DNA of 64,000 nucleotides from a virus (IMGVR_UViG_3300021399_000096); one strand, 5' to 3'. Positions 27,241 to 58,283 are shown, counted from the stretch's first letter. The notes: a model not told the origin generated them from the sequence alone. Translations and numbers: made by a program.

Positions 27241-27624
27241 TTATCTGATATTTTTAATTTTCCCATTGTGTAAATAATTGAAATTTTTCAATTGTATACC
27301 ACTCATTATTTTATCTAATGTTATATGCAATTTGTCGCCAATCCCATAAGAAATTTTATAAAAACCTAAATTATTATCAAATTCGTAACATTTACATCCC
27401 CTCTTTTTAGAATTAGCGAGACGTATATTAATTTTTTCTTTACATTCATCTAATGTTCCACTAAATTCACATATAGCATTTTCAATATTTAAAGATTCAG
27501 GGTCAGTCCAAATTGTAACAACATAAAAAATATTATCTTCACCTTCATTTAAAGCTTTCTTAACTTCTTTAGCTACAGAAGTCATGATGCTTTCATACAA
27601 AGCCTTTTTGTTATCATTTTTCAT
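27241..27624 (-). CDS. leader-bearing hypothetical protein (candidate internal head protein)
   Basis: Starts MKNDNKKALYESIMTSVAKEVKKALNEG. Confidence 0.65.
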   Translation of the reverse strand: MKNDNKKALYESIMTSVAKEVKKALNEGEDNIFYVVTIWTDPESLNIENAICEFSGTLDECKEKINIRLANSKKRGCKCYEFDNNLGFYKISYGIGDKLHITLDKIMSGIQLKNFNYLHNGKIKNIR

Positions 27625-28509
27625 ATCTTTATCCTTTAATAAATTTTGCAAGTTTATTTCAAATATTTCCACAATACTTTTTTAATTTTTTGAATTTTCT
27701 CATTTTCTTTATTTTTATCCATATATTCCTTTAATTTGTCTTTCCACTAATCTCCATATTTTTGTTTAAAATACTTTACAAGACTTTGTGCAGAACGATC
27801 AACATTATAATCAGCTTTTTGTACCATTGCAACATTATTAGTATTATCTTCATTTCCAAAATAATATGTTGATTTACATAAATTACTATTTTTATCTATT
27901 AAATATTTTTTGCAAAGATTTGCTATATATTCAGCCGCTTCTTTATTATCTACAATAGGTATAACTAATTTTTGAGTGCTATTTAAATCATGCCATGAAA
28001 GTGTCTAATATGGACGATTAGTTGTTATATCAATATCAAAACCTAATTGTTTAATCAACTGACGTGTATTATCTTTATATGAAACATATTTTACTATAAG
28101 ACGTAATATATTATCTCCATAATAAAAATTTGAAATTTCATATTTAATATTTTTATTATTTAATGATTGAAAAGCTTTAGTATGTCTTTTTGCTGCATCA
28201 TCTATATTATCATGAAGATCCGGCATTGCATTTATTTTATTACTAAGTTCTTGCATCTGCTTAATAATTTTATTAGTTTCAACCCAATCATCTTTTGCAT
28301 CTTCTAACTAATTTTTAAGTTCATTAAATTTTTTAATTAATTCTTCTCTTTTACTAAATTCTTTTTGATCCTATCTATCTTTAATAGTAAGATCATCTAT
28401 ATCCTCATTCAATGCTTTCTTAACTTCTTTGGCGACAGCCATCATAATGTTTTCATACAAAGCTTTTTTGTTATCTCTTTTCATATCTTTATCCTTTAAT
28501 AAATTTTGC
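27546..28509. repeat. about 104-bp dispersed direct repeat (27546-27649 vs 28406-28509, offset 860)
   Basis: Ungapped alignment covering the upstream gene tail, AAAGGATAAAGAT, ATG and the leader codons. Confidence 0.9.
27654..28484 (-). CDS. leader-bearing hypothetical protein (276 aa, code 15)
   Basis: Starts MKRDNKKALYENIMMAVAKEVKKALNED and is open over 4 TAG to TAA 27654. Confidence 0.75.
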
Positions 28510-28839
28510 GAGTTTTTTAGCGATTTCAATAACATCATCAACGCCAACATTTGACATTAACTTTGCTACGTTGACAGCCTGACCAAGGGCTTTAACTTTA
28601 ATTTCCTCATCTGTCATTTTTTCAACTTCTTTCTTTTCATTTTCGATATCTTCTGTAGATGGTGCTTCGTCATCATCAAATTGCAAACCACCACCTTCAA
28701 AATAAGAATCTTCATCATTATTATCACTATCCAAATTAAATTCTTGACCAATTGCATTGCTATCATCATCGACTGATGCTACACTGACTTTTGGACCATT
28801 TGGATATGCACTTCTTTCTTTTCTTTCTCTTGGTTCCAT
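28489..28839 (-). CDS. acidic hypothetical protein, paralog of 26822-27217
   Basis: MTDEEIKVKALGQAVNVAKLMSNVGVDDVI. Confidence 0.7.
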   Translation of the reverse strand: MEPRERKERSAYPNGPKVSVASVDDDSNAIGQEFNLDSDNNDEDSYFEGGGLQFDDDEAPSTEDIENEKKEVEKMTDEEIKVKALGQAVNVAKLMSNVGVDDVIEIAKKLAKFIKG

Positions 28840-28969
28840 TATGTTTAAAAATATAATTTTATTATTTATTTTATATTAAAAACACTCAAAAAAACTTTTT
28901 TCTCAACCTGCCATAAAATAATTAATGTTAGTTATTCCGGTTAATAAATTTATTTTAATTATTAATTTA

Positions 28970-30793
28970 TTAAATACCTTTCTTGGTAGCTAAAGGAAAA
29001 TAGATTACTTCTGAATCTTTAGATTTCTTTTTCTTAGATTTTTTCTGAGATTTAGGAATGGTAAGATCTCCAGAACCATTAAACATATCAGAAGCCTATT
29101 GAGCACCTGTCATTGCTGCCCCTTGTGCTGGAACTACATTACCAATACCAACAGTATTCATTGGGGTATTGTAAGATCCTCCGACACCTCCACATTCTCC
29201 ACCACATTCGCCTTCAAACATAAATCCTTCAGTTACGGCTACATCGCCCGTTAAATCTTCGGATTGTTTTGCATCATTTTTCTTTCTTAATTTTTCAAGG
29301 CGTTTTTCATTATCTTCATATTGCTTTTGAATTTTTAAATATTTGTCTAAAATTTTATGACGTTTTTTAATGGATTTTTCCATTTTTTCTGGTTCTCTCC
29401 AATCATTAATCCATTTTTTGTCATTTTCACAAATATCTAATGCCTCTTTATACAATTCTAATATATCTTTTTTCTTTCTACTTTTTAATTTCCACCAAAA
29501 ATCATATTTTTCAAAATTTTTATCAGGTTCATCTGCTAAATTATCTAATGAAGTAACTCTATCAAAGAAATATTCAATTTGGCCAATAACATCCCATGCC
29601 CAACTTGATTCACGTTGTCTTTTAGCATCATTAAGAGTTTTTTTACATAAATCATATATTTGTTCAACCGTAGCTAAATTAATATCATATCTCATATCGA
29701 GTGGACCGTCACCGTCATTAGGATCATATCCCCAAGAACCTTCATTTAAAACAGAATTAAAGTCAAATGATTCATTAACTTTATCTTTAGTTAATAATTT
29801 GTACATTTCATCTTTATATTCTTGAAATGTTTTTATAAAATGAATTTTAGTTTTGGGTGCTTGATCAAAAATCTATTCTGTTTTTAAATTCAATAATAGT
29901 ATTGCTCTGCTAGAATCACCTGCACAAACAGATTTTTTAACTTGATCTTTCATATATGATTTAAATGTTTCATATGAAGATAGTATTTGTTGTTTTTCTT
30001 TTATTCTTTTTATTAAATCCTTTTCGCCTTTATTATATCGTTCTAATAAGTCTTTATACCCATCAAAGAAATTTTCAATAAATGACAAACGTATACCAAT
30101 ACCAGAATCATAATGATCACGTTTATTTAATATGTTTTGATCAATCATATTTAAAACATATTTTAATCTATCTAATAATTTTGAACTATCTGCCCACTAA
30201 TCTTTATCTAAATATAATTTGTATACAAATTTATAAAGTTCTTCATCACTTTTTAAATTAAAACTGCATAAATTAATATTTTCATCATCATATTCTATAC
30301 TAGTCAACCCGTCTAAATTAATATTATAAAACTCCCATTGTATCATATTGGCAACCAAACGATCTTTTTTATCATCTGTATCTTTTTTATGCCAATAATA
30401 TCTATTACAAAAAGCTCTAATTTTTTCAATATCTTCTATACTGGGATTTTTAATAATAAAGAAATTTTTTTGTTCCTCATGATCATATAAACAAACTACA
30501 TTTGCTCTCAGACATTCTTCTTCAGACATAAGACCATTCGATTCATTTAATGCATTTTTAATTCCTTTAGAAATTGCAGATACAATAGATTCATGAAATG
30601 GTTTTTTCCAATCAGGCGTAATTTGGTTTCCCCATGTATCAGAAGAAAACGGATCTTTGTTTCCGGCATCTTGCATTGCCATAAAGAATTTAATATTTTC
30701 TTTAGGTAAATGTACTGGGCAATTTGACACTCTATAATTTTCAGTGCCAATTTTGCCCAATAATTTACTTTTATTTGTATACTTAGATGCCAT
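28970..30793 (-). CDS. multi-segment hypothetical protein (607 aa, code 15), probable virion protein
   Basis: Three track ORFs join via TAG 30197, 29873 and 29096. Contains KPFHESIVSAISKGIKNALNES, VNES, VLNEG. Confidence 0.75.
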
Positions 30794-30812
30794 AATAATT
30801 TGAAATATATTT

Positions 30813-32360
30813 TTAATTATTTATTAAATTAAATAAACTATTTTCTAAATCTTTACTCCACCCCTCCACGCTATTACAAATAAATTTTATGTTCGGATCA
30901 TTTAAAGCTTTTTGAAAATCATTTTTAAATATAGAATAGTTCCATATTCCTAAACGAATATTAGAATCTAATATTGGTTCTTCATGCTCATAATAATTGA
31001 AGTAAATATCCTCAAGGACATAGCTTTCATTCATTAAGTTGAACTTTTCAATTATTGCTAATAGCTTGTCCATTTCATACCAATATGGAAAATGCGTAGT
31101 ATAGTTTATATGTGGCATACCATCTTTGTCAAATAACTGGCGTGTTTTCCATTTATCATAATTCCAATAACTTTTTGGAGCTTTAGAATTGCCAGTAAAA
31201 GATTGTGAATGATAATGTGTTTGTAAAATATCAAATAACGTAAATGGTTTGATTGCATATTCATCATCACACATTGCAATAAAACCAGTATATTGTTCTT
31301 TGTATTTGTTTATTACAGTTACAAATTTATTTAGAATATCAAGATGTGGATTATATTGCCCATCTATTTTTGGTTTTGTTGGACACTCAATAAATTCAAC
31401 CCACGGAAACTTTTCTTCAAAAGATTTGTCATATTCTCCAATCACTACAAAATGATAATTAAATGTACAGTTTTTTCTCCATAATGATAATGTAAGTTCA
31501 AGTTCGGTTCCTTGTGCACTACTTTGTTTATAAGGTAAAATCACTAGTGTTTCTTCTTTAAGTGCTTCCATAAGTTCAGTTTTTACACATTTTAATTCTG
31601 GATTAAGATTGAAGAAAAACTCAAAGTTTCGTCTTTTACCCCACATAAAACCACGTTTTTTTAATCGCCAAACATATTCCTCCCAAGATTTTGTTATGTA
31701 ATGTTTCAAATATATTTTATCATATACTTTTGCTGAACGATTTTTAGAAAAATCTGTTCTACACCAATTGCATTTATCACTTGGCTAATGAGGATTCCAA
31801 AAAACAGAATCGTTATATTTTTTCAAATTAAAGCAAGTTTTGCTAAGTGCATATGGTTGTTCGACTAAATAACCAGTAGATTCATATTTATATGCTTCAA
31901 GAACTTTTTGATTTGGTTTTTGAATATAATTGCAAGCTCCATAACATTTCCATTGTAAAACTATAGCATCATAATCTTTATATAGTGATACAATATCATA
32001 TAGTTTGGAACTATTATTTTCAAGTGTAATAAATTCATCAGCATCTATCACAAAACACCAATCAAATTCTAAATAATTATTTGAAAGATATCGAAGGCAT
32101 CGTTTTATATAAAAATGATGTGGACTTTTTGTTTTAGTTTGTTTTAATTCTAATAAATATGTTTTTTCTTCTATATTAAATAATTCTGAAATGTTTAATA
32201 ATGAAACACAACTATATTTGTCTGTAATGTCTTTATGGGAATCACTATCAAAATCTTCAAAAATAAAAACACAATCAATACCTAAATTAAGATGGTATTG
32301 AATCCACTCATCTAGGTATTGATGCTCATTTTTTATTACTGTACAAATACAGGTTTTCAT
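30813..32360 (-). CDS. GT2/GT92-like glycosyltransferase fused to a Stealth-like sugar-phosphotransferase domain (515 aa, code 15)
   Basis: Joined via TAG 31785. N-terminal ICTVIKNE..YLDEWIQYH, IDADEF, LKHYITKSWEEY; C-terminal ELELTLSLWRKN, MCDD, THFP. Confidence 0.7.
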
Positions 32361-32370
32361 AAATTACTTA

Positions 32371-33291
32371 TTAAATATTTACATCACCATCTGTGCAATG
32401 AACTACAGTTGCTTTGACATTATCATGCCAATAATAACCTTTAGTAATAACATTCCATTGAGACATTGTTCCTGTATACGAAATAGAGGTCAAACTACAG
32501 CAATAATAGAAAGCACCCTCTCCAATAACAGTGACACTATTAGGAATAGTTATAGAGGCCAAACCGTCGCAACCAGCGAAAGCATACTTTCCAATGCTTG
32601 TGACGCTATTGGGAATCGTCACAGAGGACAAACCACTGCAATTCTGGAAAGCAAAACCCTCGATGCCGGTGACGCTATTGGGAATGGTTACAGAGGTCAA
32701 ACTGCTGCAACCCTGAAAAGCACCCTCTCCAATAACAGTGACACTATTAGGAATAGTTATAGAGGCCAATCCGCTACAGCTGGCGAAAGCAAACTCTCCA
32801 ATGCTAGTGACGCTATTAGGAAGTATTATAGTTTCTAAATTTGTAATATTTTCGAAACCATTACTCGGTATTTCAGTTAAATTTTCAGTAAATTTAATTA
32901 CACCTTTACCATCTTCATATGGAAGAATTTCATATTCAGGCCAATCTGTACCAGATCCACTGCCTGAACCTGAACCAGAACCACTTCCTGAACCAGAACC
33001 TCCACCACTAAGGTCAATAGGTTCTCCATCTGTAGTAGTATACCAGATTTCATCATTTGGAATTACATCACCACTACCAGAACCACTTCCTGAACCAGAA
33101 CCACTACCAGAGCCAGAACTAGATCCATCATCTATAATTAATAAATTTCCTTCTTGTCTACAATGTTTATTGGGTAAATTGCATACGAGATTCTGAAGTG
33201 TTGAATCTACAAAACCCATCCATGGAATATCAGCTATTTTGTACTGATCACCGTCTTCTGGTGTTAAAAATGTTTTAATATATTCTTTCAT
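32371..33291 (-). CDS. BspA-type (LRR_5) leucine-rich repeat protein with Gly-Ser linkers
   Basis: Five IPNSVTSIGxxAFxxCxxLxSxT units and two GSGSGS tracts. Confidence 0.85.
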   Translation of the reverse strand: MKEYIKTFLTPEDGDQYKIADIPWMGFVDSTLQNLVCNLPNKHCRQEGNLLIIDDGSSSGSGSGSGSGSGSGSGDVIPNDEIWYTTTDGEPIDLSGGGSGSGSGSGSGSGSGSGTDWPEYEILPYEDGKGVIKFTENLTEIPSNGFENITNLETIILPNSVTSIGEFAFASCSGLASITIPNSVTVIGEGAFQGCSSLTSVTIPNSVTGIEGFAFQNCSGLSSVTIPNSVTSIGKYAFAGCDGLASITIPNSVTVIGEGAFYYCCSLTSISYTGTMSQWNVITKGYYWHDNVKATVVHCTDGDVNI

Positions 33292-33313
33292 ACTTAAAAA
33301 TCATACATTTATT

Positions 33314-33691
33314 TTACTTATTTTCAAGTGCTTCAACCCTGACAATTAATTCATTTATATGGCTAGATATGTTTCTGAATATGCCTTCTAAATATTCTTC
33401 TAAAGACTGTGATGAACTAGAATTTGTTCCATCAAAACCGCCGATGCCTTCGATATATACTTTTTTACTAGTAGGATCTTGATAAACCCCAATATTTTTT
33501 ATAGATGCATCTAATGCTTTTATAGATGCATCTAATGCATTTACAGACGCGTCTAGTGCATTCAAAGAAGCATTAATAGAATTCAAACTCCCATCTATAT
33601 TAGGCTTATTGCTAACAGCATCCCAGTGTGTTACAGGAACAAATGGCTGTCCAGTAACAGCATCTTTTAACTATCTTAATTCTACTGACAT
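33314..33691 (-). CDS. fibre-associated coiled-coil protein (125 aa, code 15)
   Basis: MSVELR(Q)LKD...PVTHWDAV, LDAS repeats. Confidence 0.6.
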
Positions 33692-33708
33692 ATATTAATT
33701 ATATAAAT

Positions 33709-34056
33709 TTAATTTTCTATTTCTCTATGTGGCTGTTGTTTAGCCCATGTTATGCATTCTTCTACAAAATTGTAATATTCTGTAAAAGCTTCTGTTTCAA
33801 CATCACGTTTTCTTTGAACTTCAAATTCCTGATTTATAGAATAACATTCTCGAATCTTTTGTTCGACTAGTTCTTCTAATGTTGGAAGATAAGGTTCTGG
33901 TTCCGGCTCTATATATTCTTCCCAACCAGTGGATAAAAATTGTTCTAAAGTTGGATTTGTGATATGAAAATTCCCTAAAGTTATTGTTGTAAAGACTTTA
34001 TTATCTTTTACTCTAAAAGAACGTAGTATGTCCTATTTTTTAAATATTTTAATCAT
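33709..34056 (-). CDS. hypothetical tail-associated protein (115 aa, code 15)
   Basis: Open with TAG=Q: ...FLSTGWEEYIEPEPEPYLPTLEELVEQKIRE... Confidence 0.6.
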
Positions 34057-34085
34057 ATTAATCTTTTTAAATATTTTTAATTATG

Positions 34086-34838
34086 TTAATCAAAATGTTC
34101 TAAGAAATATCCAGTTGAATTGGCATTTCCGAAAAATACGCCAGATATTTCATCATACATACCGAATTCACCGGCAGAATGAGCTTTATTGTCAGATGCT
34201 AAATTAGCTGGTATATTAGAAGTAAGCTAACAAGCTTTAAATATATGAACCATATTAGAATTGTATTTAATTCCTAATTCATATAAAGCTATATCGGTGG
34301 CGGGTTCTCTAGCGGGAATACCCTCACTGCTTTTGTCAAATATTAATAAAGAATATGAACATACATTTGCAAATGAACCATCTTCAGCAGAATATCCAAA
34401 ATATACTTTATTTCCTAAATTTCCATTATTATAAATCTATATATAACTATTATTTCCACTAATGTTTGGAACCTAAGTAAATCTTACTTTTTTATTTAAA
34501 AATGGCTATAAAGATTTCATTGGAGATGTCCAAGAAGTTGAATTTCTAACACGGGCTCCCATATATATATTGCTATAAGCTTCATTACTTTTAAGCCAAT
34601 AATTAATAATAGTATAATGATAATATGACATAGATGCTCCACATATACGTCTAACTTTAGAATAATTATCTACTAATACTTTACTATCTACATATATTTC
34701 TAATACATTATTATTAAAATTCTTAAACAACGTATCTATATAAGCACTATTAGTAGTATATATCCCTCCTGGGCATAATCTATACCAACTTGCTTCAGTA
34801 TTTGTATTTGTTAATAATTTTCTTCTAATCTCACTCAT
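34086..34838 (-). CDS. fibre/receptor-binding-like protein (250 aa, code 15)
   Basis: Extends over TAG. C-terminal GMYDEISGVFFGNANSTGYF motif. Confidence 0.6.
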
Positions 34839-35397
34839 TACTCCACTCTCCTATAATACCAAGATTATTTTCTATACTTACTAAATATTTCTTTCCAGTT
34901 TGAATATCTGGATCTTTTAACCAAGTTACACTAGACGGAACATTTAATGTTGTAGCAACAGATCCGCTAGTGAACTAAAACATATATTCATTTACGATAT
35001 CCGAATTTCCGGGATTTAATGTAACTGTCAAACTAGTTTTTGTTCCAAACATATACATTTTATTTGGATCTAGTGCAAATATACTAGAAGAATCATCGGT
35101 TTTGTCAACAACTGGTGTAGATGCAATAGCAAATAATGATACGTCTGGAACTGATTCTACAACATCGCTGTCAATTGTAGGATCATTTGTTGGATATAAT
35201 TCATTATGAGTCCAAATATATTTTGAACCCTTATTATAACCATACGGCTCATCTTCAAATGTTGCAGTTAAAAAAACTATAGAATCTTGATTAACTTTAG
35301 ACTGCACACTTGGTTTTATAGAAGTTATATCAAGTGTAGAACCAGAAACATTAAAAACATTATGAAGGCCAGTAGCTTTAACAAATTTTTTTGCCAT
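34831..35397 (-). CDS. fibre-associated protein (188 aa, code 15)
   Basis: EYMF(TAG)FTSGSVATTLNVPSSVTW matches the common EYMFQFTSG motif. Its stop overlaps the next start. Confidence 0.7.
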
Positions 35398-35542
35398 AGT
35401 TATAAATTTATTGCATTAAATTTTTATATTTATTTATAAAATAAATTAATAAAAATAAATAGAGTTTTGCATATTAATATATATTTAAATGTATATTTAA
35501 TACTATAAATATATGCATAATAAATGATATGGAAAATTTAAA

Positions 35543-36382
35543 TTATTCAATAATTTCCCATGATAATAAATCCTAAACATATGCATCAGTAGTAAGACCT
35601 GTAGCAGGTGTAGATCCATAATCATTAGCTGCAAGAACAACTCCAGACGTTAATGAAACTGAACCACTAGTAGGATTAGAAGCAACATATACAAATGTTG
35701 TATCTGCATCAGTAATAGCAGTTTCACCAGTTACTGTATTGACAACGTTACCGACTTGATCATGCAATTCTTCAATAACTTCACGATATGTTGATGCTTC
35801 ATTAATGCCGCTTCCTTGTGACCAATTTGGATTAAGAGATTCACCTAAACCAAGACTATCAGACATTGTGGTAATTGATGCAGCAGTTACTTCTTCAACA
35901 TCAGATAGTTCTTTATAAACATCTTGTGCTATTGCTAGGCCAGTTAAACCATTAGATGCATCTGCTAAAGTAATAATATTGCTATTTAGTAATAGTTTAT
36001 TATCACTTGCAGATAATTGTATATAACTTGTATCACTATTAACTAATATACTGCTATCATTAACAATTATGCTATTGTTTAATGCATTAATACTGATATT
36101 TTGGATGCTTGCATCAACTTCATCCTTAGTATAATAATTGTCTAAATCAATTGCAGTGCTTCCAATTATTTCCCATTTTTCATCTACCCACAAATATTCA
36201 TCACGAACATTTTTCTCCAATTCTGTTTTAGATGGAATTAAATATAATATATGTTCTACACCGGCGTCTGGAAGTTCATCTAGAACAGACACATCAAAAC
36301 TAACAAGTTCAGATATTTTCTTTTTTATTAACTCGTTATATGTTACTAAACCGTGATCATTTAAATAATACTTTTTTGCCAT
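35543..36382 (-). CDS. fibre-associated protein
   Basis: NVRDEYLWVDEKWEIIGSTAIDLDNYYTKDEVD motif. TAG near the C-terminus is read through to TAA 35543. Confidence 0.7.
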
Positions 36383-36397
36383 AAATAATTAATAAAT

Positions 36398-36775
36398 TTA
36401 TTTTTCTTCAGTATCCAAATTATTAATAAATTCATCTGGAATAGGAACCATATCACTAGTTCCACCACCTTCACCATTAAAAAAATTTGTGGCTGGATAT
36501 AAATTGTTATCTACATAATATTGAAACATATCAGTAAAATATGTAGGAGAACCACTACTTTCTAAATATAAATGGGTATGACGTATTTTAACTATATCTT
36601 CTTTAGAAACGCTAGTATCTACTGGAATTTCAGTTTTGTCATAATCATAATATGCACTTGCATCAATAGAAACATCCCCCCACTATTCGGTCATTGTAGT
36701 CATATGATCTAATTCTACATGAGCATTTGTAGTAGCTAATGTTTGATTTATAACTTGCCTTGTTGAACTATTCAT
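36398..36775 (-). CDS. hypothetical protein (125 aa, code 15)
   Basis: One in-frame TAG; upstream TAAATA-type motif. Confidence 0.6.
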
Positions 36776-36797
36776 TTTATTTAAAAATAAATTTTTA

Positions 36798-36856
36798 TTT
36801 TTATATTTATTTTGAGAAACTTTTTATTGTTTTCATATATATAATAAATAATAAAA
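36798..36856. promoter_or_regulatory. back-to-back AATAAATA(T/AT)AAAA motifs (candidate late promoters) for 36775(-) and tmRNA(+)
   Basis: The same motif recurs 20-55 nt upstream of starts at 8623, 12241, 15604, 18449, 28839, 35397, 37681, 52535, 5627 and 60442. Confidence 0.45.
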
Positions 36857-36861
36857 TCAAT

Positions 36862-37261
36862 GGGCTCATTTGGCTTTGACTGCATTGATTTTGATTTGTA
36901 AGCATGTGACGCATTGAAGATACGCGTCTAATAAATGTTCTTTGAGAATAATTTAAATGGCGAAGAAAATTACGCTATGGCAGCTTGATCCGAAGTATAG
37001 TAAGACGGCTTAAGATTTTGCAAGGCAGAATCGACATACATCGCTCAATCCCATAATCCAAGGGTGAATTGATATAGTGGTGCAGGAATATTGGATATTA
37101 GAATTTGCGATGCTATTAAACAAATTCGAAACTATAATAGCTTAAGATATTGTTGGCTAGTTTGAGGTTTAGCAATATACAAAAATTAAATCAAACTAAA
37201 CATGTAGAAAGCAGATTGGAACATATGCAACACGTGGGTTCGATCCCCACTGAGTCCACCC
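36862..37261 (+). ncRNA. ssrA: tmRNA
   Basis: Acceptor stem GGGCTCA/TGAGTCC with the G3:U alanyl determinant, T-arm GTGGGTTCGATCCCCAC, discriminator A. Tag ORF 36959-36988 encodes (A)GEENYAMAA-TGA. Confidence 0.93.
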
Positions 37262-37267
37262 CAAAAC

Positions 37268-37296
37268 AAAGGAACCTAAAATAAAGGTTCCTTTTT
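37268..37296. terminator. terminator after tmRNA and the convergent holin-like gene
   Basis: AAAGGAACCT / AGGTTCCTTT stem. Confidence 0.75.
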
Positions 37297-37297
37297 C

Positions 37298-37681
37298 TTA
37301 TGCATCTAATTCAGATTCTTCATCATCTGAATCATTTTCATCTTCAAGTTCTTCTTTTATTTCTTTTTCCAATTTATGTGCAATTTCTTCTGGAGATTTT
37401 TTATTGAATCTGTAATTTGTATAATTTGTCCAGCCTTTCAGAATTCCGCCTGATGCAAATATTCCACAAACAGCTGCAATATATTCTGCCATTCCTGAAA
37501 TATCAGATGCAATAGTGTGATTAAAATAAACTTCAATTAACATTGCAATTGCAGGAACTAATAGAAGAAACAATGCAATAAGTGATGTTAAAAATAAAAA
37601 GACTGTTGAAGCTGATACAGTCTAGTCATCCATATCAAATAAACGAGATAACCATCCTTTTCTTTTCTTTTTCTTTGCCAT
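37298..37681 (-). CDS. holin-like two-TM membrane protein (127 aa, code 15)
   Basis: Basic N-terminus MAKKKKRKGW, TAG at codon 20, two hydrophobic helices, charged C-tail. Confidence 0.55.
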
Positions 37682-37907
37682 AATTAAAACAATAATTTTT
37701 ATATTATTGCTCGTTTTTATCAATTATTGTTTTCATTATATTTATTAAAAACCTTTTATAATATAAATATAGAATATAATTTAAAAATAAAGAAAGTTGC
37801 GGATTTATATGGGTGAGCAATATACATTAACTGATAAAAAGCGAGATAAAGATAATCCAAATTAAAAAGTTGATTAATAAACAAAATATCAGTTAAAGAC
37901 AGATTAG

Positions 37908-37941
37908 AAAAATGCCACTAATTAATTTTAGTGGCATTTTT
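37908..37941. terminator. bidirectional terminator
   Basis: AAAAATGCCACTAA / TTAGTGGCATTTTT. Confidence 0.7.
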
Positions 37942-38091
37942 AATTAATTACTTTTCTTTAACAGAATTATTTTTTCTCTTTCATTTCTTTTATTCTTCTT
38001 AACATATCTTGATAAGGAGACTTTTCTTTCAATTTTTCTAAAAATGTTTTTTCTTTTTCCATATCTTTATTTGTTTATTTAATTATAATTA

Positions 38092-40494
38092 TTACTGTGC
38101 ATCTTCTACTGTCCAATTAGTAGGTATACCATGACCGCCAGTTTTCCAACTTGTTGCATCTAGATGCTTAACAAATGTACCAGCACTTGCGACACCATGT
38201 ACCCACTCGTATGTGCAAGCGGTTGCCGATATATTAGACGCAAGGCATTTAATGTAATTTAAACTTGTACAATCATAGAACATACAAAAATAACACTGAT
38301 TTGTTAATGTAGCCGCATGTAACTCTGGCGCAGTTTCTAAATTACTACAATTACGGAACATATTACTATAACAACCAGTTGCTAATTCAGTAGCAGGTAA
38401 TTCTGGCGCAGTAATTAAACTTGTACAACGATTAAACATACTAGCATAGCAATCATATGCTAATGTAGTAGCAGGCAATTCTGGTGCTGTTGTTAAACTA
38501 CTACAACCATCGAACATGCCTTGATAACAACCATATGATAATGTAGTTGCAGGTAACTCAGGTGCTGTTATTAAACTAGTACAACCAGCGAACATACCTT
38601 GATAACAATACTGTGCTAATGTAGTAGCAGGCAATTCAGGTGCAGTTGTTAAACTTGTACAATTGTAGAACATATTATTATAACAACCAGTTGCTAATTC
38701 AGTAGCAGGTAATTCTGGCGCAGTTGTTAAACAAGTACAACCATTGAACATTCCATCATAGCAATAACTTGTTAATGTAGTAGCAGGCAAACAATAATGC
38801 CCTGAATTTTGATTTATTGGTAAAATGTTCATTAAATCATTGTCATTAACTTTTGTTCCAGCAAATAAGCCATGCAATCCACCGTCAGCAAAAGTTTCAT
38901 CGCCTGAAAAGTCAATATTTGTACAGTCTGGTAATAAATTTGTATTACTAAACATACCATAATAGCAACTATATGCTAATGTAGTTGCTGGTAATTCAGG
39001 CGCAGTTGTTAAACTAGTACAACCATCGAACATCCTATTATAACAACTCTCTGCTAATGTAGTTGCTGGTAATTCAGGCGCAGTTGTTAAACTAGTACAA
39101 TTAAGAAACATATAATACCCACAATATCGTTTTAATGGCGTATCTTGGTTTTCATAATTCCACAAATAGTTACAATTACCATCAGCTGCAATCTTACCAG
39201 TCATTTTAAATTGTGTATAGTTACTAGTAGTATTATTTGAACTAAGAATACCCCTAATATACACGGTATCACCACTATTTGCTAATGTAATTGTTGTTGT
39301 AGTTGTCATAGAAGACCAATTACTCAAGTCTCTACTATACTCTAAAGTTTGGTAACTACTTTTTCGTGCTAAACCGATTGTACTATTCGCTTCTTGTGCG
39401 GTGAATTTAACTGGTAAATAATCTTTAACTACCCATCCAGTAGGTATGCCATCAACACTATCTGTAAGCCAATTTGCAGCCTCAGTATGTTTTACAAATG
39501 TACCACTACTTGCTACGCCTGATACCCAATTAGTAGTACTATTATTCTGATTTATTCCATTTATTGCAAGACATTTAATGTAATTTAAACGACTGCAACC
39601 TCTGAACATACTATTATAACAATAATTTGCTAATGTAATTGCAGGTAATTCTGGCGCTGTTGTTAAACTAGTACAATCTCGGAACATAGCATAATAACAA
39701 TTACTTGTTAATGCAGTAGCATGTAATTCTGGTGCAGTTGTTAAACTTGTACACCCATAGAACATGTATTGATAACAATAATCTGATAATATAGTGGCAG
39801 GTAATTCTGGTGCTGTTGTTAAACTAGTACAATTTCTGAACATATAAAAGTAACAATAATTTGCTAAAGTGGTAGCAGGTAACTCGGGGGCCGATGTTAA
39901 ACTCGTACACCCATAGAACATAGCATAATAACAATTACTTGCTAATGTAGTAGCAGGCAAACCAGGTGATGTTGTTAAACTAGTACAACCAAAGAACATA
40001 TCTTGATAACAATTACTTGCTAACGCAGTTGCTGGTAATTCAGGCGCAGTAATTAAACTAGTACAATTATAGAACATATAATATCCACAATATTTCTTCA
40101 AAGGCGCGGCCAAATTATTATAGTCCCATAAAGCATTACAATTACCACTTACAGCAATTTTACCTGTCATTTTAAATTGTGTGTGGTCGGAACCTGTATT
40201 ATCTCCATTTAATATACCAGCGATATAGCAATTATCCCCACTATTGGTTAAAGTAATAGTGGTGTCAGTCGCCATCTTTTTCCACTGTTTCCCATTCGTA
40301 CTATACCATAGTTTTTGATTGGTACTCAATTTCTCCAAGCCAATAGTACTATTTGCTTGCTGAGCGGTAAATGTGACATAGTTTGTAATAGGAATTGATG
40401 CTGTATATATCAGTTCATCACCATGATATATACTAACAACCTCATTATCTCCTAAATATATAGATCCTATTTGATTATTTCCAAATAATAACAT
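38092..40494 (-). CDS. LRR-like solenoid protein with 26-aa TTAPELPATTLAxxCYxxMFxxCTSL repeats (internally duplicated)
   Basis: Two halves each start FTAQ(Q/E)ANSTIGL, followed by repeat arrays. Confidence 0.8.
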   Translation of the reverse strand: MLLFGNNQIGSIYLGDNEVVSIYHGDELIYTASIPITNYVTFTAQQANSTIGLEKLSTNQKLWYSTNGKQWKKMATDTTITLTNSGDNCYIAGILNGDNTGSDHTQFKMTGKIAVSGNCNALWDYNNLAAPLKKYCGYYMFYNCTSLITAPELPATALASNCYQDMFFGCTSLTTSPGLPATTLASNCYYAMFYGCTSLTSAPELPATTLANYCYFYMFRNCTSLTTAPELPATILSDYCYQYMFYGCTSLTTAPELHATALTSNCYYAMFRDCTSLTTAPELPAITLANYCYNSMFRGCSRLNYIKCLAINGINQNNSTTNWVSGVASSGTFVKHTEAANWLTDSVDGIPTGWVVKDYLPVKFTAQEANSTIGLARKSSYQTLEYSRDLSNWSSMTTTTTITLANSGDTVYIRGILSSNNTTSNYTQFKMTGKIAADGNCNYLWNYENQDTPLKRYCGYYMFLNCTSLTTAPELPATTLAESCYNRMFDGCTSLTTAPELPATTLAYSCYYGMFSNTNLLPDCTNIDFSGDETFADGGLHGLFAGTKVNDNDLMNILPINQNSGHYCLPATTLTSYCYDGMFNGCTCLTTAPELPATELATGCYNNMFYNCTSLTTAPELPATTLAQYCYQGMFAGCTSLITAPELPATTLSYGCYQGMFDGCSSLTTAPELPATTLAYDCYASMFNRCTSLITAPELPATELATGCYSNMFRNCSNLETAPELHAATLTNQCYFCMFYDCTSLNYIKCLASNISATACTYEWVHGVASAGTFVKHLDATSWKTGGHGIPTNWTVEDAQ

Positions 40495-40513
40495 ATGCGT
40501 ATAATATTCATTT

Positions 40514-42799: not shown

Positions 42800-42832
42800 A
42801 TAATTAATAAAAATATTAGTTTTTATTGTTTA

Positions 42833-43879: not shown

Positions 43880-43894
43880 AATTTTTATTTTTAT

Positions 43895-43955
43895 TTTTTA
43901 TTATTTTTAGTAATCTATTCAGAAACCAATCTGAATAGACTTTAGATTAAATTGG
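43895..43955. repeat. about 60-bp block identical to 49474-49534, containing a 10-bp hairpin
   Basis: TCTATTCAGA-AACCAA-TCTGAATAGA just downstream of both LRR gene stops. Confidence 0.85.
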
Positions 43956-45149: not shown

Positions 45150-45168
45150 TATTTTTATTTAACATTTT

Positions 45169-45882: not shown

Positions 45883-48800
45883 AAGTAGTTTCTAAATTTT
45901 GAAGTCTGTTTTCATGATTAACTAAAGTAGCTGAAACAACAGTATCTAATGCAATTAATTTGTCATTTAAATTATTCAGTGCAGCAGAAATTGTTTCAAA
46001 TAAAGGACTTAAATTAGATGGATCCGCATTTTTAAGTACCTATTGTAGTGTTTGTGCTTCACTAATATTGTCTCCATTAAAATTACCAGCTCCTCTAACA
46101 TAAATGTCGCCATTTTGCATTATTTCTAATGCATTTGTGCGATCTTCACCGCCAGTGTAAATAAATTCAGTTTCATCAGATTTTTCAACTCTCCAGCAAG
46201 AAAATGCATCACCCGGATCAGTGGCAATATTTTTGTCTAATGCCAAATAAATTCTTGCAGACACTTTGTCAGGATCAGTCTAATCATATCTTGCAGCTGC
46301 AATAACAGTTCCGAGATAATGTTTTTTCTCATCATCTGAGAAAAGTTGACTACCAACTAAATTTTCAATATCTGCTATATCTGGTGTAGGCATTTCACGC
46401 CTTTCAGTAATTAAACAATATTTTAATGATGTCGTTGTATCACTTCCTGAATAATATTGCCAATTTACTTGATCTTGCCAATCATTAGTACCTTTAAAAT
46501 ATCCAATAAATTCTGGCTCACCTTTATAAACTTCTACTATATTTCCTCCAGCACCAACTGAAAATAATGTGTTTCCTTTGTTTCCATATTCATTAGATGC
46601 TTTATGTGAAACATTTCTAAATCCTTGTGCATGTTCTGCATAATTTTTAGTTTCAGTTTTGTATCCTTCTGCATGTGAATAAGTTCCTTCAGTATATGTT
46701 TCACCGCCTTCTGCATGTGCGCCATATCCAAAATATTCATTACGTCCAACTTGGAATATAGCATTTGGATAATAAGTTATGTTGTAACTAATGTCACCTT
46801 TTATTCCACTTTGATCTTCTTTTTCACCTGATCCCCAAGTATTATAACGTGGTGCTAACTCTATAGTAGCATTATTGTAAGAATATACAATAAAATTGTG
46901 GAGTTTAATCTTTTGACCTTCATCTGCGATTGGTTTCAACTATACACGTGATTGTGGTCTTTCATCAAATGCATGACGTAAAGAATTTAAATTGCCTTCA
47001 GTTAATTTAAGTACAATATGGTGAGTTGTTGAATTGTATGATAGTATTTTTACTTTTGCATTTCTATTTATAAATTCTTCTTTACTTTGTACAAATGTTT
47101 TCCAACCTTCAGCATGTGAATAATTTGAATTTATTTGTGTTTCATAACCTTCAGTATGAGAGCCTTCTGAATGTTCATTTATAAATGTATTTACACCTTC
47201 TGCATGTGCATATTTGCTTAATGCTTTTGAATCAATACCTTCTGTGTGTGTAGCATCCCCATCAGCTCTAGTATTTATACCTTCAGAGTGTGATGCAGTT
47301 TGAACTGCTACTGTATCTTTTCCTTCTGCATGGGCAGCAACAGTGGTAACCTCTTTATACACATTATATGTTGCACCTATTGTATATCTATTATACTTAA
47401 TAACTGACGCACCTTGCCTAATATCAGGATTTATTTTTAAATAGATATATTCATCAGATATGTGATCTACTATGCAATTTATTAAATAAATTTTTTCATC
47501 TCTATTATTTGGATTTATTAACTATATAGTTCTTAATGTATAAAAATAAGCTGCAAACTTACTCTAATTACTATCGCCAACATATTTAAGCACTATCGAT
47601 TGGTCAGTTATTGAGTTTAAAATTACTTTATGTTTTGTTTCTTTATATGTTGTATTTCCATCTGTAGTACAATTATATCCTTCTGCATGTGAGCCTTCGC
47701 CTTGTGCAGATGAATGAATGCCTTCAGAATGTGCATATAAACCAGATGCTTTAGTATCATATCCTTCAACATGTGTATATTCACCTTCTGCATGTGTATA
47801 TTTTCCTTCAGAGTGCGAGCCAAATGCAAGTGCCTGTGTCTGTTCACCTTCAGCGTGTGAATATGCTCCATATGCTTGAGTTTTTGTTCCTTCACCGTGC
47901 GCAGCAGTTCCAGTAACGCGAGTTCTTTCACCTTCTGCATGACTATATTTACCAGCTGCATCTGACAAATAACCTTCTGAGTGAGAAGATTCACCAGCTG
48001 CGCCAGTTTTTATATAAGCAGAAACTGAAGTATTTGAAGGTATTTGTGCAGCTCTATCTATAATAAACCAGCTGCCACTTTCACCTTGAGACTTGTCTGG
48101 GAATCTTGTAATTACACCTAAAATGGAACCATCTGCATTATATAATGTTCTTCCAATCCATCCAGCAAATTTATTATTTTTCTCTATTCTATATTTTTCA
48201 GTAATATCTGAAGCTGAATTCCATGCATCAGAAGCAAAATCAGAACCTGCTAAGAAATTGAAAGCAGAGTCAGATGCAGATCCTTCAAATCTAATACTAT
48301 CATAATATAATCTAGTATTACCATATCGTGACTCCCAATATACCTTAAATAATGTAACATTACCACCGGTTCCTTCAGCATGTGATGACTGGCCTAATGC
48401 AGTTGTAGTATTTCCTTCTGCATGTGATGACTATCCAGAAGCAGTAGTATAATATCCTTCTGCATGCGCATAAGAATTGGTTGCATCGGATTCAAATCCT
48501 TCAGCATGTGATGACTACCCAGATGCAGAGGTGTATTCACCTTCTGTGTGCGCATATGTTCCCTCAGTATATGTTTCACCACCCTCTGCATGTGCACCAA
48601 AGCCTGATGTTATATGTGTTACCGTACGTCTCCATACAGAAGAAGTCCTATCATATATCTATGAAGTGTCTAATGAGAAATAAATACGTTTACCATAAGC
48701 ATAACTTTTATCTCTAGCAGCATTAACAATTTTTCCTAAATATTCCTATCCCTCGTCATCTTTAAATAATAAGCTGCCAACTAAATTAGGAATATTACTT

Positions 48801-49450
48801 ATTGGGTCTATTTCAGGAACTTCACCGTTTTCAATTTGTAATTTATACTAAAAACTACATTCTTGTGAACTTCCTTCAAAAAATTCAAGATCTTCTCTAT
48901 TAAATTCATATGAGTTAGTATCATTAGGCGTACCCATATATCCAATAAATTCAAGAGGTGATGTTATTGTCTCATTTATAAATTTTGTAATAGATTTATG
49001 GCCTTCTGCATGTGAATAAGCCGCCTGAGTTTCTGTTTCTAATCCTTCTGCATGTGATGCCTCGCCCATTGCATTAGTATATTCTCCAATAGACTATGAA
49101 TAATCTCCAGATGCAACAGTTCCTTTTCCTTCTGCATGACTTCTAATTCCAGATGCAGTATTTAAATCTCCAAGTTCTTCATTAGTCCCTTCAGCCAATG
49201 AATCAAGTTCTTTATTATATATATGGCCTTTATTGCCTCCTGCAGTATTATAAATATATCCGCCAGTCCATATATAATTGCCATATGATGCATCATTAAC
49301 AAATATGATTGAAAACTCACTAGCAATAGAACTATCTGGAATAAGTTCTAGTTGTTTAATATCACCATCTGCAACTGCTTCCCAACCTGCTTCAGGTTCT
49401 ATAAACAAAGCAGCTAGTGAATTTGATCTAATAAACTGTTTATAATTCAT
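45863..49450 (-). CDS. long fibre/adhesin with (Y/S)SHAEG repeats (YadA-head-like), 1195 aa, code 15
   Basis: Six track fragments share one frame; the gaps were hand-checked and contain TAG only. Confidence 0.8.
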
Positions 49451-49525
49451 AATTTTTTATTAAAAATTTTTATTTTTTATTATTTTTAGTAATCTATTCA
49501 GAAACCAATCTGAATAGACTTTAGA

Positions 49526-50362
49526 TTAAATTGGTGTATAAGCTGGTGGATTTTCTCCTAAACAGTAAATTTGTGTTGCCGGTACATTAAGATGCCAACC
49601 ATATCCTTTAGTTATAGAATTATATTGAGATATTGTTCCTGTATATGAGATTGAGGTCAACCTACTGCAACCACGGAAAGCATACTAACCAATGACTATG
49701 ACATTATTACCGATGGTCACAGATATCAAACCGCTGCAATTACGGAAAGCACCATCTACAATATGTGAGATGCTGTTAGGAATTGTTATGGAGGCCAAAC
49801 TAGTGCAATTGAGAAAAGCCTCATTTCCAATGGCAGTAACGCTATTGGGAATCATTACAGAAGTCAAACTAGTACAACTCCGGAAAGCCCAATCTCTAAT
49901 AATTGTTACGTCTGTTTCAAATTTAATAACACCTTTCCCAGTATTTGGATCAAAATCATTAGAAATAATAGTTGGCAAAGAACTAGGTCTATATGGCGTA
50001 ACTTTACTTGTTGCTGTATATCTAATTATGTCATTCATTTCTTTAATTATTGCGACTCCATTCTCAACAACTATTTTGCAATTCTCCTAATTGCATTCTA
50101 AGAACTATTGACTTTCTTTAATATAGCAACTAAATGGAATAGTTTCAATGATATATCCATCAGCATCATTTAATGTTTCAAAAATAACATCAACTATATT
50201 ATGAACAATAACCTACCCATTCTAAATAATTAACATTTTATTTGGATCATTATTAAATATAACCTATTCATTTTCTTTGATATAACAAGTGAATGGGATA
50301 TCATTGATTACATATCCATTTGCATCATTTAATGTTTCAAAATATTTTATATTTTCTTTCAT
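49526..50362 (-). CDS. BspA-type LRR protein B (278 aa, code 15), paralog of 43947-45149
   Basis: Same MKENIKYFETLNDANGY N-terminus and PTIISNDFDPNTGKGVIKFETDV segment, with fewer LRRs. Confidence 0.85.
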
Positions 50363-50377
50363 ATTTCAAATTTATTT

Positions 50378-50773
50378 TTAGACATTTACTATTTCCCATT
50401 TGAAAACAGCCTCAATGTAATCTTTAACATATCCGTCACTGGCCAATCCTGTTGATTCTGCATGAATATATCCATCTGGAAGAGATGCATCCTCAACTTT
50501 CTCAGCAAGTTGAACTTCAGATTTAAGATTTACATTTTCCATTTCTTTTGTCACACTAACAGAAACAAATTCATCATTTGGCCGTTCATTAATTGGTTTT
50601 TCGCCATTAACTTTTATTGGTTCTAATAATGCCAATTTTTCTTCAACATGTCCAATTCTTGCATGAACTTTTCTAAAGAGTTTCCAAATCCACTCTTTGA
50701 ATTCTTTTGTATATAATTCAGTATTTCCCCAATCAAAAATTGTTTTATTGTTTTCCATAAATTTATTATTCAT
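50378..50773 (-). CDS. hypothetical protein
   Basis: 131-aa ORF that overlaps the upstream stop. Confidence 0.6.
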   Translation of the reverse strand: MNNKFMENNKTIFDWGNTELYTKEFKEWIWKLFRKVHARIGHVEEKLALLEPIKVNGEKPINERPNDEFVSVSVTKEMENVNLKSEVQLAEKVEDASLPDGYIHAESTGLASDGYVKDYIEAVFKWEIVNV

Positions 50774-55755: not shown

Positions 55756-55756
55756 T

Positions 55757-55785: not shown

Positions 55786-55797
55786 AATTTTTGGTTT

Positions 55798-57213
55798 TTA
55801 CCAATCTTCATCTTCCCAATCATCTCTATCAACATCAACATCAGGATCTTTATAATCATACATATCTTCGTGATTAGGAACTTCCCATAATCTATTTTGA
55901 ATAATATAAAGAACTGTTTGTCTTAATAAACGCATTACTAATTCTTCATATTGCTTATCATCTAAATCACAGTATGCTCTATCAACAAATGAAAATATTT
56001 TTTTAACTGTTATCCATAATGGATTATTCATTGTAGTTGGAGTAATATTTGCATACATAAATCTAACAGCAGGATTAACGGTTTCACGGCCATATCCTTC
56101 ACCGGCTTTATCACCATCATTATAATAACGATATGCAATACGTTCAGCTGCTCTTAATAATTCACCACCTAATGAATCTGCATGTCCAGAACCTGGAACT
56201 AATGCATCAAATAAAATTTCAGAATCTTTTTCAGTATTAATTTCTCTAGCACCATCATCCACATCTCCTACTAAATCTGCAAATTCATCACCATATTTTT
56301 CTCTAATATCTGGTTCTTCACCTTCAAATAATTGTGATTCATTTATACCTCGAGAATCTAATTCATCTTGAATTTGCTGAGCTTCTGAATCATATCCTTT
56401 TCTTTTGCAAATTCCAAGATTCATTATTAATTTATCTGTAGAGCATGCTTTGACATTTTGTTTTCTTTTTCCTTCATGCCATTTGTCCATTTTACTTTCA
56501 GCATCTTCTTTGTCAGCTTTTGTTAAATCTTCGGTAACAGATTTTTTATTTGTTTTGATTTTAACTGATTCATCTAAATCTTCATCATCGAAGTCTTTAT
56601 AAATTTCATCCTTATGTGCAAAGAACCAATTTATAGTTTTTGTAATTTCAGGTGCATTAATTATAATTGTGTCAATGAACACACTAACAACACCATAATA
56701 ATCTTTAATTTCAATATCACGGAATTCCATTGGATCATCTAAATCAATATGAACCCAACCTCTGCCATACATTGTTTCAATTGAGAACTCATCATCTAAA
56801 TGATATTGTATATAATCGATTACACCATCTTTGGTTACAATATTTTCATCTAAATAATCTTTAACATCCGATACATATACATGGCCTTCAATTATTCCAC
56901 CATTTACGGTTTTTTGTTCATCATCAAATTCATCAATAACATCACCATTATAATATATACCATCAGATGTTACACCATCATAATAATCTTCAGCCTTCCA
57001 TTCTACTAATGAATCACTTAAAGATGCTTTAAATCTAAAAATAGGTTCACCATTTGAATCTTTGCTTCTACGTATTGAATTTATATCTATTTCATCAATG
57101 GCAAGTCCACTAATAGATACTGTATATCCAGCGCCTGCTCCTTCATTTAATGTTTTTCCAAGAGCTTTTGATACTGATTCCATTATTGATTTATGTAAAA
57201 GTTTTTTATTCAT
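55798..57213 (-). CDS. leader-bearing acidic protein (candidate internal head protein)
   Basis: MNKKLLHKSIMESVSKALGKTLNEG; internal LDES and GINESQLFEG. Confidence 0.7.
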   Translation of the reverse strand: MNKKLLHKSIMESVSKALGKTLNEGAGAGYTVSISGLAIDEIDINSIRRSKDSNGEPIFRFKASLSDSLVEWKAEDYYDGVTSDGIYYNGDVIDEFDDEQKTVNGGIIEGHVYVSDVKDYLDENIVTKDGVIDYIQYHLDDEFSIETMYGRGWVHIDLDDPMEFRDIEIKDYYGVVSVFIDTIIINAPEITKTINWFFAHKDEIYKDFDDEDLDESVKIKTNKKSVTEDLTKADKEDAESKMDKWHEGKRKQNVKACSTDKLIMNLGICKRKGYDSEAQQIQDELDSRGINESQLFEGEEPDIREKYGDEFADLVGDVDDGAREINTEKDSEILFDALVPGSGHADSLGGELLRAAERIAYRYYNDGDKAGEGYGRETVNPAVRFMYANITPTTMNNPLWITVKKIFSFVDRAYCDLDDKQYEELVMRLLRQTVLYIIQNRLWEVPNHEDMYDYKDPDVDVDRDDWEDEDW

Positions 57214-57236
57214 TTTTAAAATTACATTTATTTTAA

Positions 57237-58283
57237 TTAAATATCATATGCATCAATTTTATTTTCACTGACAACATCTGCCATCCAATCATCTATTATT
57301 CCATTATCAAATAATTCTGCTGTAACTGGATCAATAAATACTTCATCAAATGGTGGAAGTTCTTCATCACCATATTTTTCAACATATAGCATAATAGATT
57401 CAGCTAAACCTCTTTGCTCTTCTTGATGCAATTGACTCCATCCTTCAACTGTTGCAAACAATGGAAGTGTATGTTCAGAACTAATATTATCATTTAAAAA
57501 ATATTTAATTCCATCAATCCATGCTCCAGTATCAGCTTGAACATCTAACCCTTCATCTTCATAATCTTCTCGTGAAGAATAATCATTGCGGTATTCGCCT
57601 TCATTAATAGCTTTTTTAACTTGTTTTGCAACTGAAAACATTATAGATTCATATAATTTCTTTGTATCTTTCATATTTTCAAATAAATTCTTTTTATATT
57701 TATTTTTTAATTTTTCTGTAACTTCATAATAATTCATGTCATTGACAAGCATTGCCATTGGGAAATTATATTTCATTGTACTTGGCAAATTATCAAAAAG
57801 ATCATAAAAACCCGCCATGTTATATAATCTTTTAACGATTCTATCTTTAGCTACGCATAAAATCATATTAAAAGTATGGTTTGAAGACAAATTTTTAAAT
57901 GGGTATTTGTCTGGATGTTCACAATACTGTTTAATAAAATTAAATATAACTTTAATAGTATTAAATGACCGGTATTCTTTAAATATTTCTAATACATCTA
58001 TACATAATGGATTATGGTTATTAAAACTATCTGCCCACTATTTAGATATTTTGTAGAAAAAATTATATAATGTGCAGTTATCACTATAATTATTTAAAAA
58101 TATATAACCAATTGGTATATCATTTTTAAAAATTATAATTTTTATATCTGTTTCATAATTTTTAATTTTATTATTTTCAAACTATAAATATTGAGTCAAT
58201 TCAGAATGATTATCAGATAATAATTGCTATATTTCATTATCTAAACACACTCGAAAATCATATGTTTTTGGAACTCCTATCAC
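57237..58283 (-). CDS. hypothetical protein with internal leader motif; start uncertain (GTG 58283 or ATG 57674)
   Basis: Frame is open over 3 TAG. MKDTKKLYESIMFSVAKQVKKAINEG begins at 57674. Confidence 0.5.

Follow-up and report, generated by a model that had tools for sequence, protein, structure and literature searches.

A recurrent leader peptide on unrelated proteins of Lak megaphages: a candidate capsid-targeting and cleavage tag

In a stretch of viral DNA from IMGVR_UViG_3300021399_000096, unrelated proteins carry one and the same leader peptide, a lysine-rich helix of 24-27 residues with the pattern KK-x-LYESIM-x-SVAK-x-VKK-x-LNE. The whole stretch, 64,000 nt of one strand, is referred to here as the window, and coordinates are counted from its first letter. 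By its likeness to known phage systems, the leader is probably a propeptide that targets proteins to the capsid and is then cleaved off. It would be an analogue, though not a homologue, of the capsid targeting sequence (CTS) of phage T4, longer and in far wider use. The window is AT-rich, with a G+C content of 24-33% across 4-kb stretches. Translation with table 11 breaks it into short open reading frames (ORFs), while reading TAG as glutamine yields long genes. In the phage collection, its sole DNA similarity is to the Prevotella Lak megaphages. Judged on these grounds, it is DNA of a Lak-type Prevotella megaphage in which TAG is read as Gln. Lak phages are among the largest phages known and are common in human and animal guts; they have never been cultured, and the majority of their genes have no assigned function. 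They are known for the use of code 15, with TAG concentrated in structural regions (PMC6784885).

The leader peptide and its boundary

Five copies of the leader are present in the window, all on the minus strand (Table 1), and each lies where an initial annotation of this DNA had placed it. A hidden Markov model (HMM) built from the five leaders and run against the six-frame translation of the window recovers only those five, with E values from 6e-19 to 2e-13; the next match has E = 0.65. Past the N-E that closes the leader, no relatedness is found among the window sequences (best pairwise blastp E = 0.31), as had been claimed. The leader had also been described as an amphipathic helix. Amphipathic it is, but only moderately so, with an Eisenberg moment of 0.22-0.40 and a net charge of +2 to +3. 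Its hydrophobic residues form a broad stripe of the kind typical of helix-helix packing. The predicted L/I-X-E end is found as L or I followed by N-E; it is near-invariant, and conservation ends after the Glu. As for the protein starts, those at 27624, 28484 and 57213 do place the leader at the N-terminus, whereas the one at 57674 is an internal Met, its frame being open for 203 codons upstream.

The sharpness of this boundary was measured in 152 non-redundant carriers of the leader, aligned on the terminal N-E; positions -1 and 0 are fixed by this anchoring and the others are free. Between -22 and 0, each position holds 2.7-4.3 bits of information. Past the Glu, the value drops to 1.3 bits at +1, where Ser, Asn, Asp or Gly occurs, and to at most 0.7 bits beyond. 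No earlier description of the leader was found in the searchable literature on Lak phages and megaphages.

One family, DUF5759 of Pfam, was considered and rejected, as it reaches 16.4 bits on a window protein against a curated cut-off of 25 bits. Elsewhere it is also below threshold: the best E among 125 carriers is 1.6e-4, Lak-B8 gives 15.4 bits, and matches just as weak occur in six control genomes. These matches are treated as chance similarity between helices. The sole paper found on DUF5759 concerns an algal virus.

Spread among relatives and diversity of the cargo

The portability of the leader becomes evident in the relatives. When the window's 127-aa carrier is searched by tblastn against Lak genomes, it aligns over residues 1-32 only. 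A profile scan of relatives, a check proposed along with the initial annotation, reveals 10-16 copies in each Lak genome (13-16 in Lak-B8, 11 in Lak-A1 and 10 in Lak-C1) and zero in an unrelated 595-kb phage. Most Lak-B8 copies lie directly after the start Met, and unrelated sequence follows them. Among 1.84 billion cluster representatives, 677 match the profile at E <= 1e-3 and 123 at E <= 1e-10; the larger count is an upper estimate of distinct genes, as many short matches are probably truncated by a TAG called as stop. Of the 181 carriers fetched, 165 (91%) have the leader beginning no later than residue six, and it is internal in the other 16.

The cargo, that is, the sequence past the leader, is highly diverse, as had been anticipated: the 147 cargos of at least 40 residues form 96 groups unrelated to one another. 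When 125 metagenomic carriers were scanned with Pfam, hardly any were recognised; one is a methyltransferase. In Lak-B8, one cargo is a sigma-70 factor (Sigma70_r2 1.3e-11, phrog_351 2e-42). The suggestion that the cargo consists of anti-defence or takeover proteins is in line with this sigma factor of one relative, but the cargos in the window belong to no family: the five window carriers give no match above cut-off in Pfam and PHROGs. Look-ups of the 471-aa and 127-aa proteins in the ESM Atlas also returned nothing usable.

Selection on the peptide and exchange at the leader

Pairwise comparison of the window copies gives a proportion of synonymous differences (pS) of 0.34-0.89, which is near saturation, and a proportion of non-synonymous differences (pN) of 0.08-0.31. 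Because synonymous differences are near saturation and non-synonymous ones are few, selection acts on the leader peptide. The copies in tandem, at 27624 and 28484, have in common a block of DNA in which the 35 nt before the ATG are 91% identical and the coding part of the leader 85% identical, similarity being absent farther upstream and past the leader. As the tandem copies share these two parts alone, it is concluded that a ‘start plus leader’ cassette was duplicated recently. Exchange is also evident at the protein level, where a conserved N-domain of about 120-250 residues is joined, together with the leader, to at least six different C-terminal parts. One protein (P0040) bears two leaders. 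The internal copies result from fusion and from exchange at the leader. Should such carriers be cleaved there, two pieces would be freed, as with the long propeptides of phiKZ-type phages.

These signs of exchange could also be explained if it were mainly the nucleic acid that matters, the repeated unit carrying a promoter, a start and a well-translated opening or else serving as a recombination joint, and the peptide having no role. The shared DNA of the tandem copies and the presence of the same N-domain and leader on different cargos would both be expected. Such a cassette is nonetheless very improbable. The peptide has been kept despite the near-saturated synonymous sites, the internal copies retain it where it has no start function, and the regions upstream of the other copies have nothing in common except the motif ATAAATA. 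Recombination at the leader is, moreover, compatible with a capsid-targeting propeptide and would be its by-product.

Head maturation proteins of the relatives

The end of the leader resembles a known kind of cleavage site. The T4 head protease gp21 cuts after L/I-X-E, and its homologues in phiKZ and SPN3US also cut after Glu (PMC9026906, PMC5694885). In T4, gp21 removes CTS propeptides of 10-20 residues as well as a 65-residue propeptide of the capsid protein; it has an L-I-E of its own at residue 9, and the giant-phage homologues trim their own C-termini (PMC9026906, PMC5694885).

Lak-B8 encodes a protein of the T4 gp21 type, which exceeds the cut-off of Peptidase_S77 (PF03420) with 56 bits, as well as a gp23-type capsid protein (PF07068, 67.8 bits). 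The only N-terminal (L/I/V)-N-E of this capsid protein is a K-L-N-E ending at residue 64, and upstream of it lie YES motifs at residues 13-15 and 30-32, like the core of the leader. The protease, 582 aa in length, has an L-N-E at residue 21. It contains six [LIV]NE sites in all against 1.4 expected (P = 0.003), four of which are located just past the catalytic domain and before a long acidic tail, where enzymes of the gp21 type cut themselves. Further, a 417-aa helical protein encoded 3.5 kb from the protease begins with a variant of the leader (41.9 bits). A search of the PDB sequences with the Lak capsid protein gave zero matches. The predicted complex of this capsid protein (P0248) with the leader alignment scored 0.00 in a run made without controls, which is evidence neither for nor against binding.

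A protease and its site might also serve another purpose. The leader could act as a timing pro-sequence that holds each protein inactive or tethered until the phage protease cuts it, the cargo then acting in the producing cell. The N-terminal pro-sequences of Bacillus pro-sigma-E and pro-sigma-K offer a precedent, and the sigma-70 carrier, the resemblance of the leader end to a cut site and the protease gene in the genome all suit this explanation. It is nevertheless quite improbable, since about a hundred unrelated folds can hardly all be silenced by a single inhibitory peptide, the leader resembles parts of the propeptide of the capsid protein itself, and proteases of the gp21 type are active within proheads (PMC9026906).

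The strongest rival is a helix for docking or oligomerisation that is retained and never cut; it is considered unlikely, and the timing pro-sequence and the nucleic-acid cassette are less likely still. Such a helix would bring diverse proteins to a common partner, for instance a phage organiser protein or chaperone, a compartment or membrane, or a hub of the host; alternatively, helix-helix contacts would let them co-assemble. In its favour, internal and, once, C-terminal positions are tolerated, the helix is basic, and its broad hydrophobic stripe is of the helix-packing kind. The very acidic proteins encoded by neighbouring genes also speak for it. AlphaFold2 places the leader of the window’s 348-aa ORF as a helix (207-228) between two domains, but at low confidence: the mean predicted local distance difference test (pLDDT) score, from a 12-row alignment, was 45.6, too poor for a fold search. 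A retained helix, on the other hand, has no need for an invariant terminal N-E or for an information cliff after one residue. It also leaves aside that the capsid protein and the protease bear the same motif where their maturation sites are expected, and the extreme N-terminal position of the tag in nine-tenths of the carriers fits a propeptide better.

A promoter-like element upstream of the leader genes

In Lak-B8, the motif ATAAATA is located 27-67 nt upstream of 9 of 9 leader genes as compared with 9 of 46 neighbours (Fisher P = 7.6e-6), and the capsid and protease genes likewise have it upstream. Of the 65 genes in the window, 18 have the motif ahead of them, at a usual distance of 28-40 nt from the ATG, and 14 of these 18 bear TAG. 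Every leader copy in the window lies downstream of an exact ATAAATA, although the genes starting at 28484, 27624 and 27217, which are arranged head to tail behind the one at 28839, have none of their own. From the exact motif ahead of the internal Met at 57674, leader and cargo could be transcribed separately, with the gene at 57213 downstream. The T4 late promoter is TATAAATA. By analogy with TATAAATA, ATAAATA is a candidate for the Lak late promoter. The use of TAG as a marker of late expression was tried for the leader genes and dropped, as these are not TAG-rich.

A probable capsid-targeting propeptide and its likeness to known systems

How the leader would work can be outlined by analogy with T4. 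The leader body (KK-x-LYESIM-x-SVAK-x-VKK) would dock the attached protein to the core of the assembling prohead. Once the shell closes, the S77 head protease would cut at the invariant (L/I)-N-E, and the mature cargo would remain inside the capsid and exit with the DNA at infection. The leader itself would travel between genes as a ‘start plus leader’ cassette and via in-frame fusion, and Lak lineages could in this way keep renewing the set of proteins that they package. The initial annotation had proposed such an address label with a cut site. Peptide selection, the sharp boundary, the N-terminal position and the diverse cargo are all as this proposal would lead one to expect, and the S77 protease, the L-N-E in head proteins and the late-promoter-like motifs are consistent with it; docking, cleavage, packaging, ejection and injection are inferred from the likeness to T4.

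The likeness to T4 is extensive. The T4 CTS, found on IPI, IPII, IPIII and Alt and removed by gp21, is likewise a short common N-terminal propeptide on unrelated, fast-changing proteins (PMC9026906, PMC5694885). In both phages, the (L/I)-x-E end matches an S77 protease, gp21-type protease and gp23-type capsid genes are present in the genome, the propeptide of the capsid protein, a putative one in Lak, is about 64-65 residues long, and the protease carries the motif near its own N-terminus. However, the two peptides have no alignable sequence similarity. The T4 CTS is 10 residues long (PMC9026906), whereas the Lak leader is a full amphipathic helix more than twice that size, and the middle residue of its cut motif is fixed as Asn. 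There are 10-16 carriers per Lak genome and hundreds of cargo clusters across the lineage, as against a handful in T4. Lak carriers are also scattered over a genome of more than 500 kb and, unlike in T4, some copies are internal after a conserved N-domain.

The phages phiKZ, 201phi2-1 and SPN3US are, similarly, giant myophages with a gp21-related protease that cuts after Glu (PMC5694885). Their propeptides are thought to target the prohead, and they possess paralogs with identical N-termini and a diverged remainder (PMC5694885). The removal of large N-terminal parts, which is possible in these phages, would fit the internal copies of Lak. The motif in this group is, however, (S/A/G)-x-E or A-x-E, and the propeptides, often of more than 100 residues, are specific to paralog groups, in contrast to the one portable tag that Lak uses for about a hundred unrelated cargos. 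Cleavages of the phiKZ type have been seen by mass spectrometry, while the Lak leader is known from sequence alone.

A modular build is also found in polymorphic toxins and contact-dependent inhibition (CDI) systems, where a conserved N-part, a sharp motif joint, alternative C-terminal modules and signs of exchange at the joint recall the leader proteins. Toxin/immunity pairs, by contrast, were not seen, and it is the phage that encodes the cargo, with the virion as its probable vehicle; in appearance, the joint is a protease site and not merely a recombination marker. Leaders of ribosomally synthesised and post-translationally modified peptides (RiPPs), such as the Nif11-type prochlorosins, resemble the Lak leader in having about 25 conserved residues, diverse downstream parts and a fixed removal site. 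A RiPP precursor was rejected: the Lak cargos are about 100-522 aa and not short core peptides, there is no Gly-Gly site, and the leader genes of the window have acidic proteins and a glycosyltransferase for neighbours, a maturase, modification enzyme or C39-type exporter being absent beside them.

Several observations weigh against a capsid-targeting propeptide. Internal copies make up two of the five in the window and 16 of 181 overall, whereas the T4 CTS is N-terminal, and one Lak-B8 copy is C-terminal and has no N-E. The protease, the capsid protein and the comparison of leader-gene promoters all rest on Lak-A/B/C relatives that carry the same leader, and the assignment of ATAAATA as a late promoter is by analogy only. 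TAG is not enriched in leader genes (0.26 against 0.67 per 100 codons in neighbours), and two carriers in the window are TAG-free. At the starts of window proteins, L-N-E is found in 6 genes including the leader family against 2.7 expected, which is not significant beyond the family. Finally, no usable variation is present at the L-N-E of the capsid protein: the N-terminal 140 residues are 99% identical in all 120 relatives listed, and the N-terminus is 98% identical in Lak-A1 and Lak-C1. The site is without comparative power because the N-terminus is 98-99% identical in all the Lak sequences found.

Genes that carry the leader and their neighbours

The carriers in the window differ widely in their build (Table 1). 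The 276-aa protein has an ortholog, P0017, with 82% identity across its full length. In the 607-aa mosaic, the N-terminal 56 aa correspond to a free-standing gene of about 60 aa in Lak-A/B. Its leader is followed by a helical middle part with V-N-E at 341 and L-N-E at 351 and by a Lys-rich tail, and a Gly-rich C-terminal stretch (536-576) resembles the N-arm of the capsid protein just past its K-L-N-E 64 (E = 2e-6). In the 471-aa protein, residues of about 223-316, with I-N-E 292 at the end, resemble the domain of P0040 that lies between its two leaders, and the C-terminal part (334-451) resembles a leader-free ORF of a 595-kb uncultured phage. The N-domain of the 348-aa ORF is homologous to P0160 and to the N-domain family of P0002, P0010, P0019 and P0035, whose cargos past the leader differ among relatives.

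Table 1. Positions of the leader copies, their genes and associated elements in the window
Feature	Position	Strand	Remarks
Leader copy 1	27544..27624	-	27 aa, Met to L-N-E; P1' Gly; HMM 62.9 bits
Leader copy 2	28404..28484	-	27 aa; P1' Asp
Leader copy 3	30542..30613	-	Internal, residues about 61-84 of 607, without Met; P1' Ser; 51.2 bits
Leader copy 4	57142..57213	-	24 aa; P1' Gly; 45.1 bits
Leader copy 5	57600..57674	-	25 aa, Met first, internal (residues 204-228 of 348); P1' Gly; 54.9 bits
Gene, 127 aa	27624-27241	-	Leader N-terminal; TAG-free
Cargo 1, 100 aa	27241..27543	-	No family match
Gene, 276 aa	28484-27654	-	Leader N-terminal; four TAG as Gln
Cargo 2, 249 aa	27654..28403	-	Helical; no family above cut-off
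Gene, 607 aa	28970..30793	-	Mosaic; three TAGs; leader at residues about 61-84
Gene, 471 aa	57213-55798	-	Leader N-terminal; TAG-free
Cargo 4, 447 aa	55798..57141	-	Two parts with outside similarity
ORF, 348 aa	57237..58283	-	N-domain, leader (204-228) and 119-aa acidic cargo; TAGs at codons 19, 34, 82
ATAAATA, exact	57697..57703	-	29 nt upstream of internal Met 57674
ATAAATA, exact	30818..30824	-	31 nt upstream of ATG 30793
ATAAATA, exact	28863..28869	-	30 nt upstream of acidic gene 28839
Duplicated ‘start plus leader’ block	27546..27659	-	Paired with 28406-28519 by DNA identity
Acidic protein, 116 aa	28489..28839	-	Paralog of 26822-27217; last codons inside duplicated block upstream of leader 2
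Acidic protein, 131 aa	26822..27217	-	Paralog of 28489-28839; N-terminus ends P-L-N-E at residue 21, then Gly

The two acidic paralogs flank the leader genes and have a common C-terminal helical domain, with 53% identity over about 50 residues. The 21-residue N-terminus of the 131-aa paralog differs from the leader, though it also ends in L-N-E and is followed by Gly. Directly upstream of the 607-aa carrier, a 515-aa glycosyltransferase is encoded at 30813-32360 on the minus strand (Glyco_tranf_2_4, 7e-14). It recalls a Lak-specific family containing Glyco_tranf_2_4 that has been described (PMC8346664).

L-N-E motifs and leader-like starts are also seen farther off, all in minus-strand genes. 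The first residues of a 689-aa protein (10172-12241) are M-R-R-K-L-N-E and then Ser, and six (L/I)-N-E sites occur in it; in a 371-aa protein (8662-9777), L-N-E stands at residue 15. Family matches are lacking for both. From these motifs, both are possible further substrates of the protease. A 913-aa AAA ATPase (phrog_1297, PF00004) adjoins a 775-aa protein, the two genes lying at 12335-14662 and 15708-18449. The first residues of the 775-aa protein, MKND-LTKRLYEAS, look like the start of the leader, but the HMM match is not significant (E = 1.3).

Other features of the window

A transfer-messenger RNA (tmRNA) gene is located at 36862-37261 on the plus strand; it matches Rfam RF00023 over the full model at 75 bits against a gathering score of 47, and ARAGORN agrees, with an odd tag peptide. 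The densest use of TAG in the window is that of a 464-aa ORF at 24738-26132 (plus strand), which contains 20 TAG codons in frame. Inspected by eye, the ORF shows RuvC-like motifs such as those of TnpB/Cas12, and Pfam and PHROGs give no match. In the tested part of the window, 26000-33900, only 26010-26140 has DNA identity (74-82%) to Lak-A/B/C, at several places per genome. This repetition of the 3' end of the ORF in Lak genomes suggests a mobile element.

On the minus strand, a 710-aa protein at 6024-8156, its gene containing 16 TAG codons, has an endolysin-like domain at its N-terminus (phrog_894, 2e-33) and may be a virion-associated lysin. Large TAG-bearing genes form a block at 33300-50400 on the same strand. 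Its paralog pairs 34831/40514 and 43947/49526 share their first 20 or so residues, and its PHROG matches are limited to families of unknown function; it is probably a tail-fibre or receptor-binding region. On the plus strand, 54146-55306 matches F420-0:gamma-glutamyl ligase over its full length (PF01996, 6.8e-45), an enzyme unexpected in a phage of a gut Bacteroidota host.

Implications for Lak phages

A broader claim, which is put forward tentatively and with more doubt than confidence, is that the leader marks the whole set of capsid-loaded, injected Lak proteins, with hundreds of swappable cargos including a sigma factor, and serves at the same time as the joint for cargo swapping. If the leader is a capsid address, the tag, the protease and the cut site would form a system open to reconstitution without growing the phage. 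The T4 CTS already serves for loading foreign proteins into capsids, and the leader could likewise become a tool to load them into large capsids. The proteins packaged by T4 are first-strike takeover and anti-restriction proteins. If the claim is true for Lak, a packaged sigma factor could redirect the host RNA polymerase upon DNA entry, and a 27-residue profile would suffice to read the ‘ejected proteome’ of uncultivated megaphages from metagenomes, along with its turnover between lineages.

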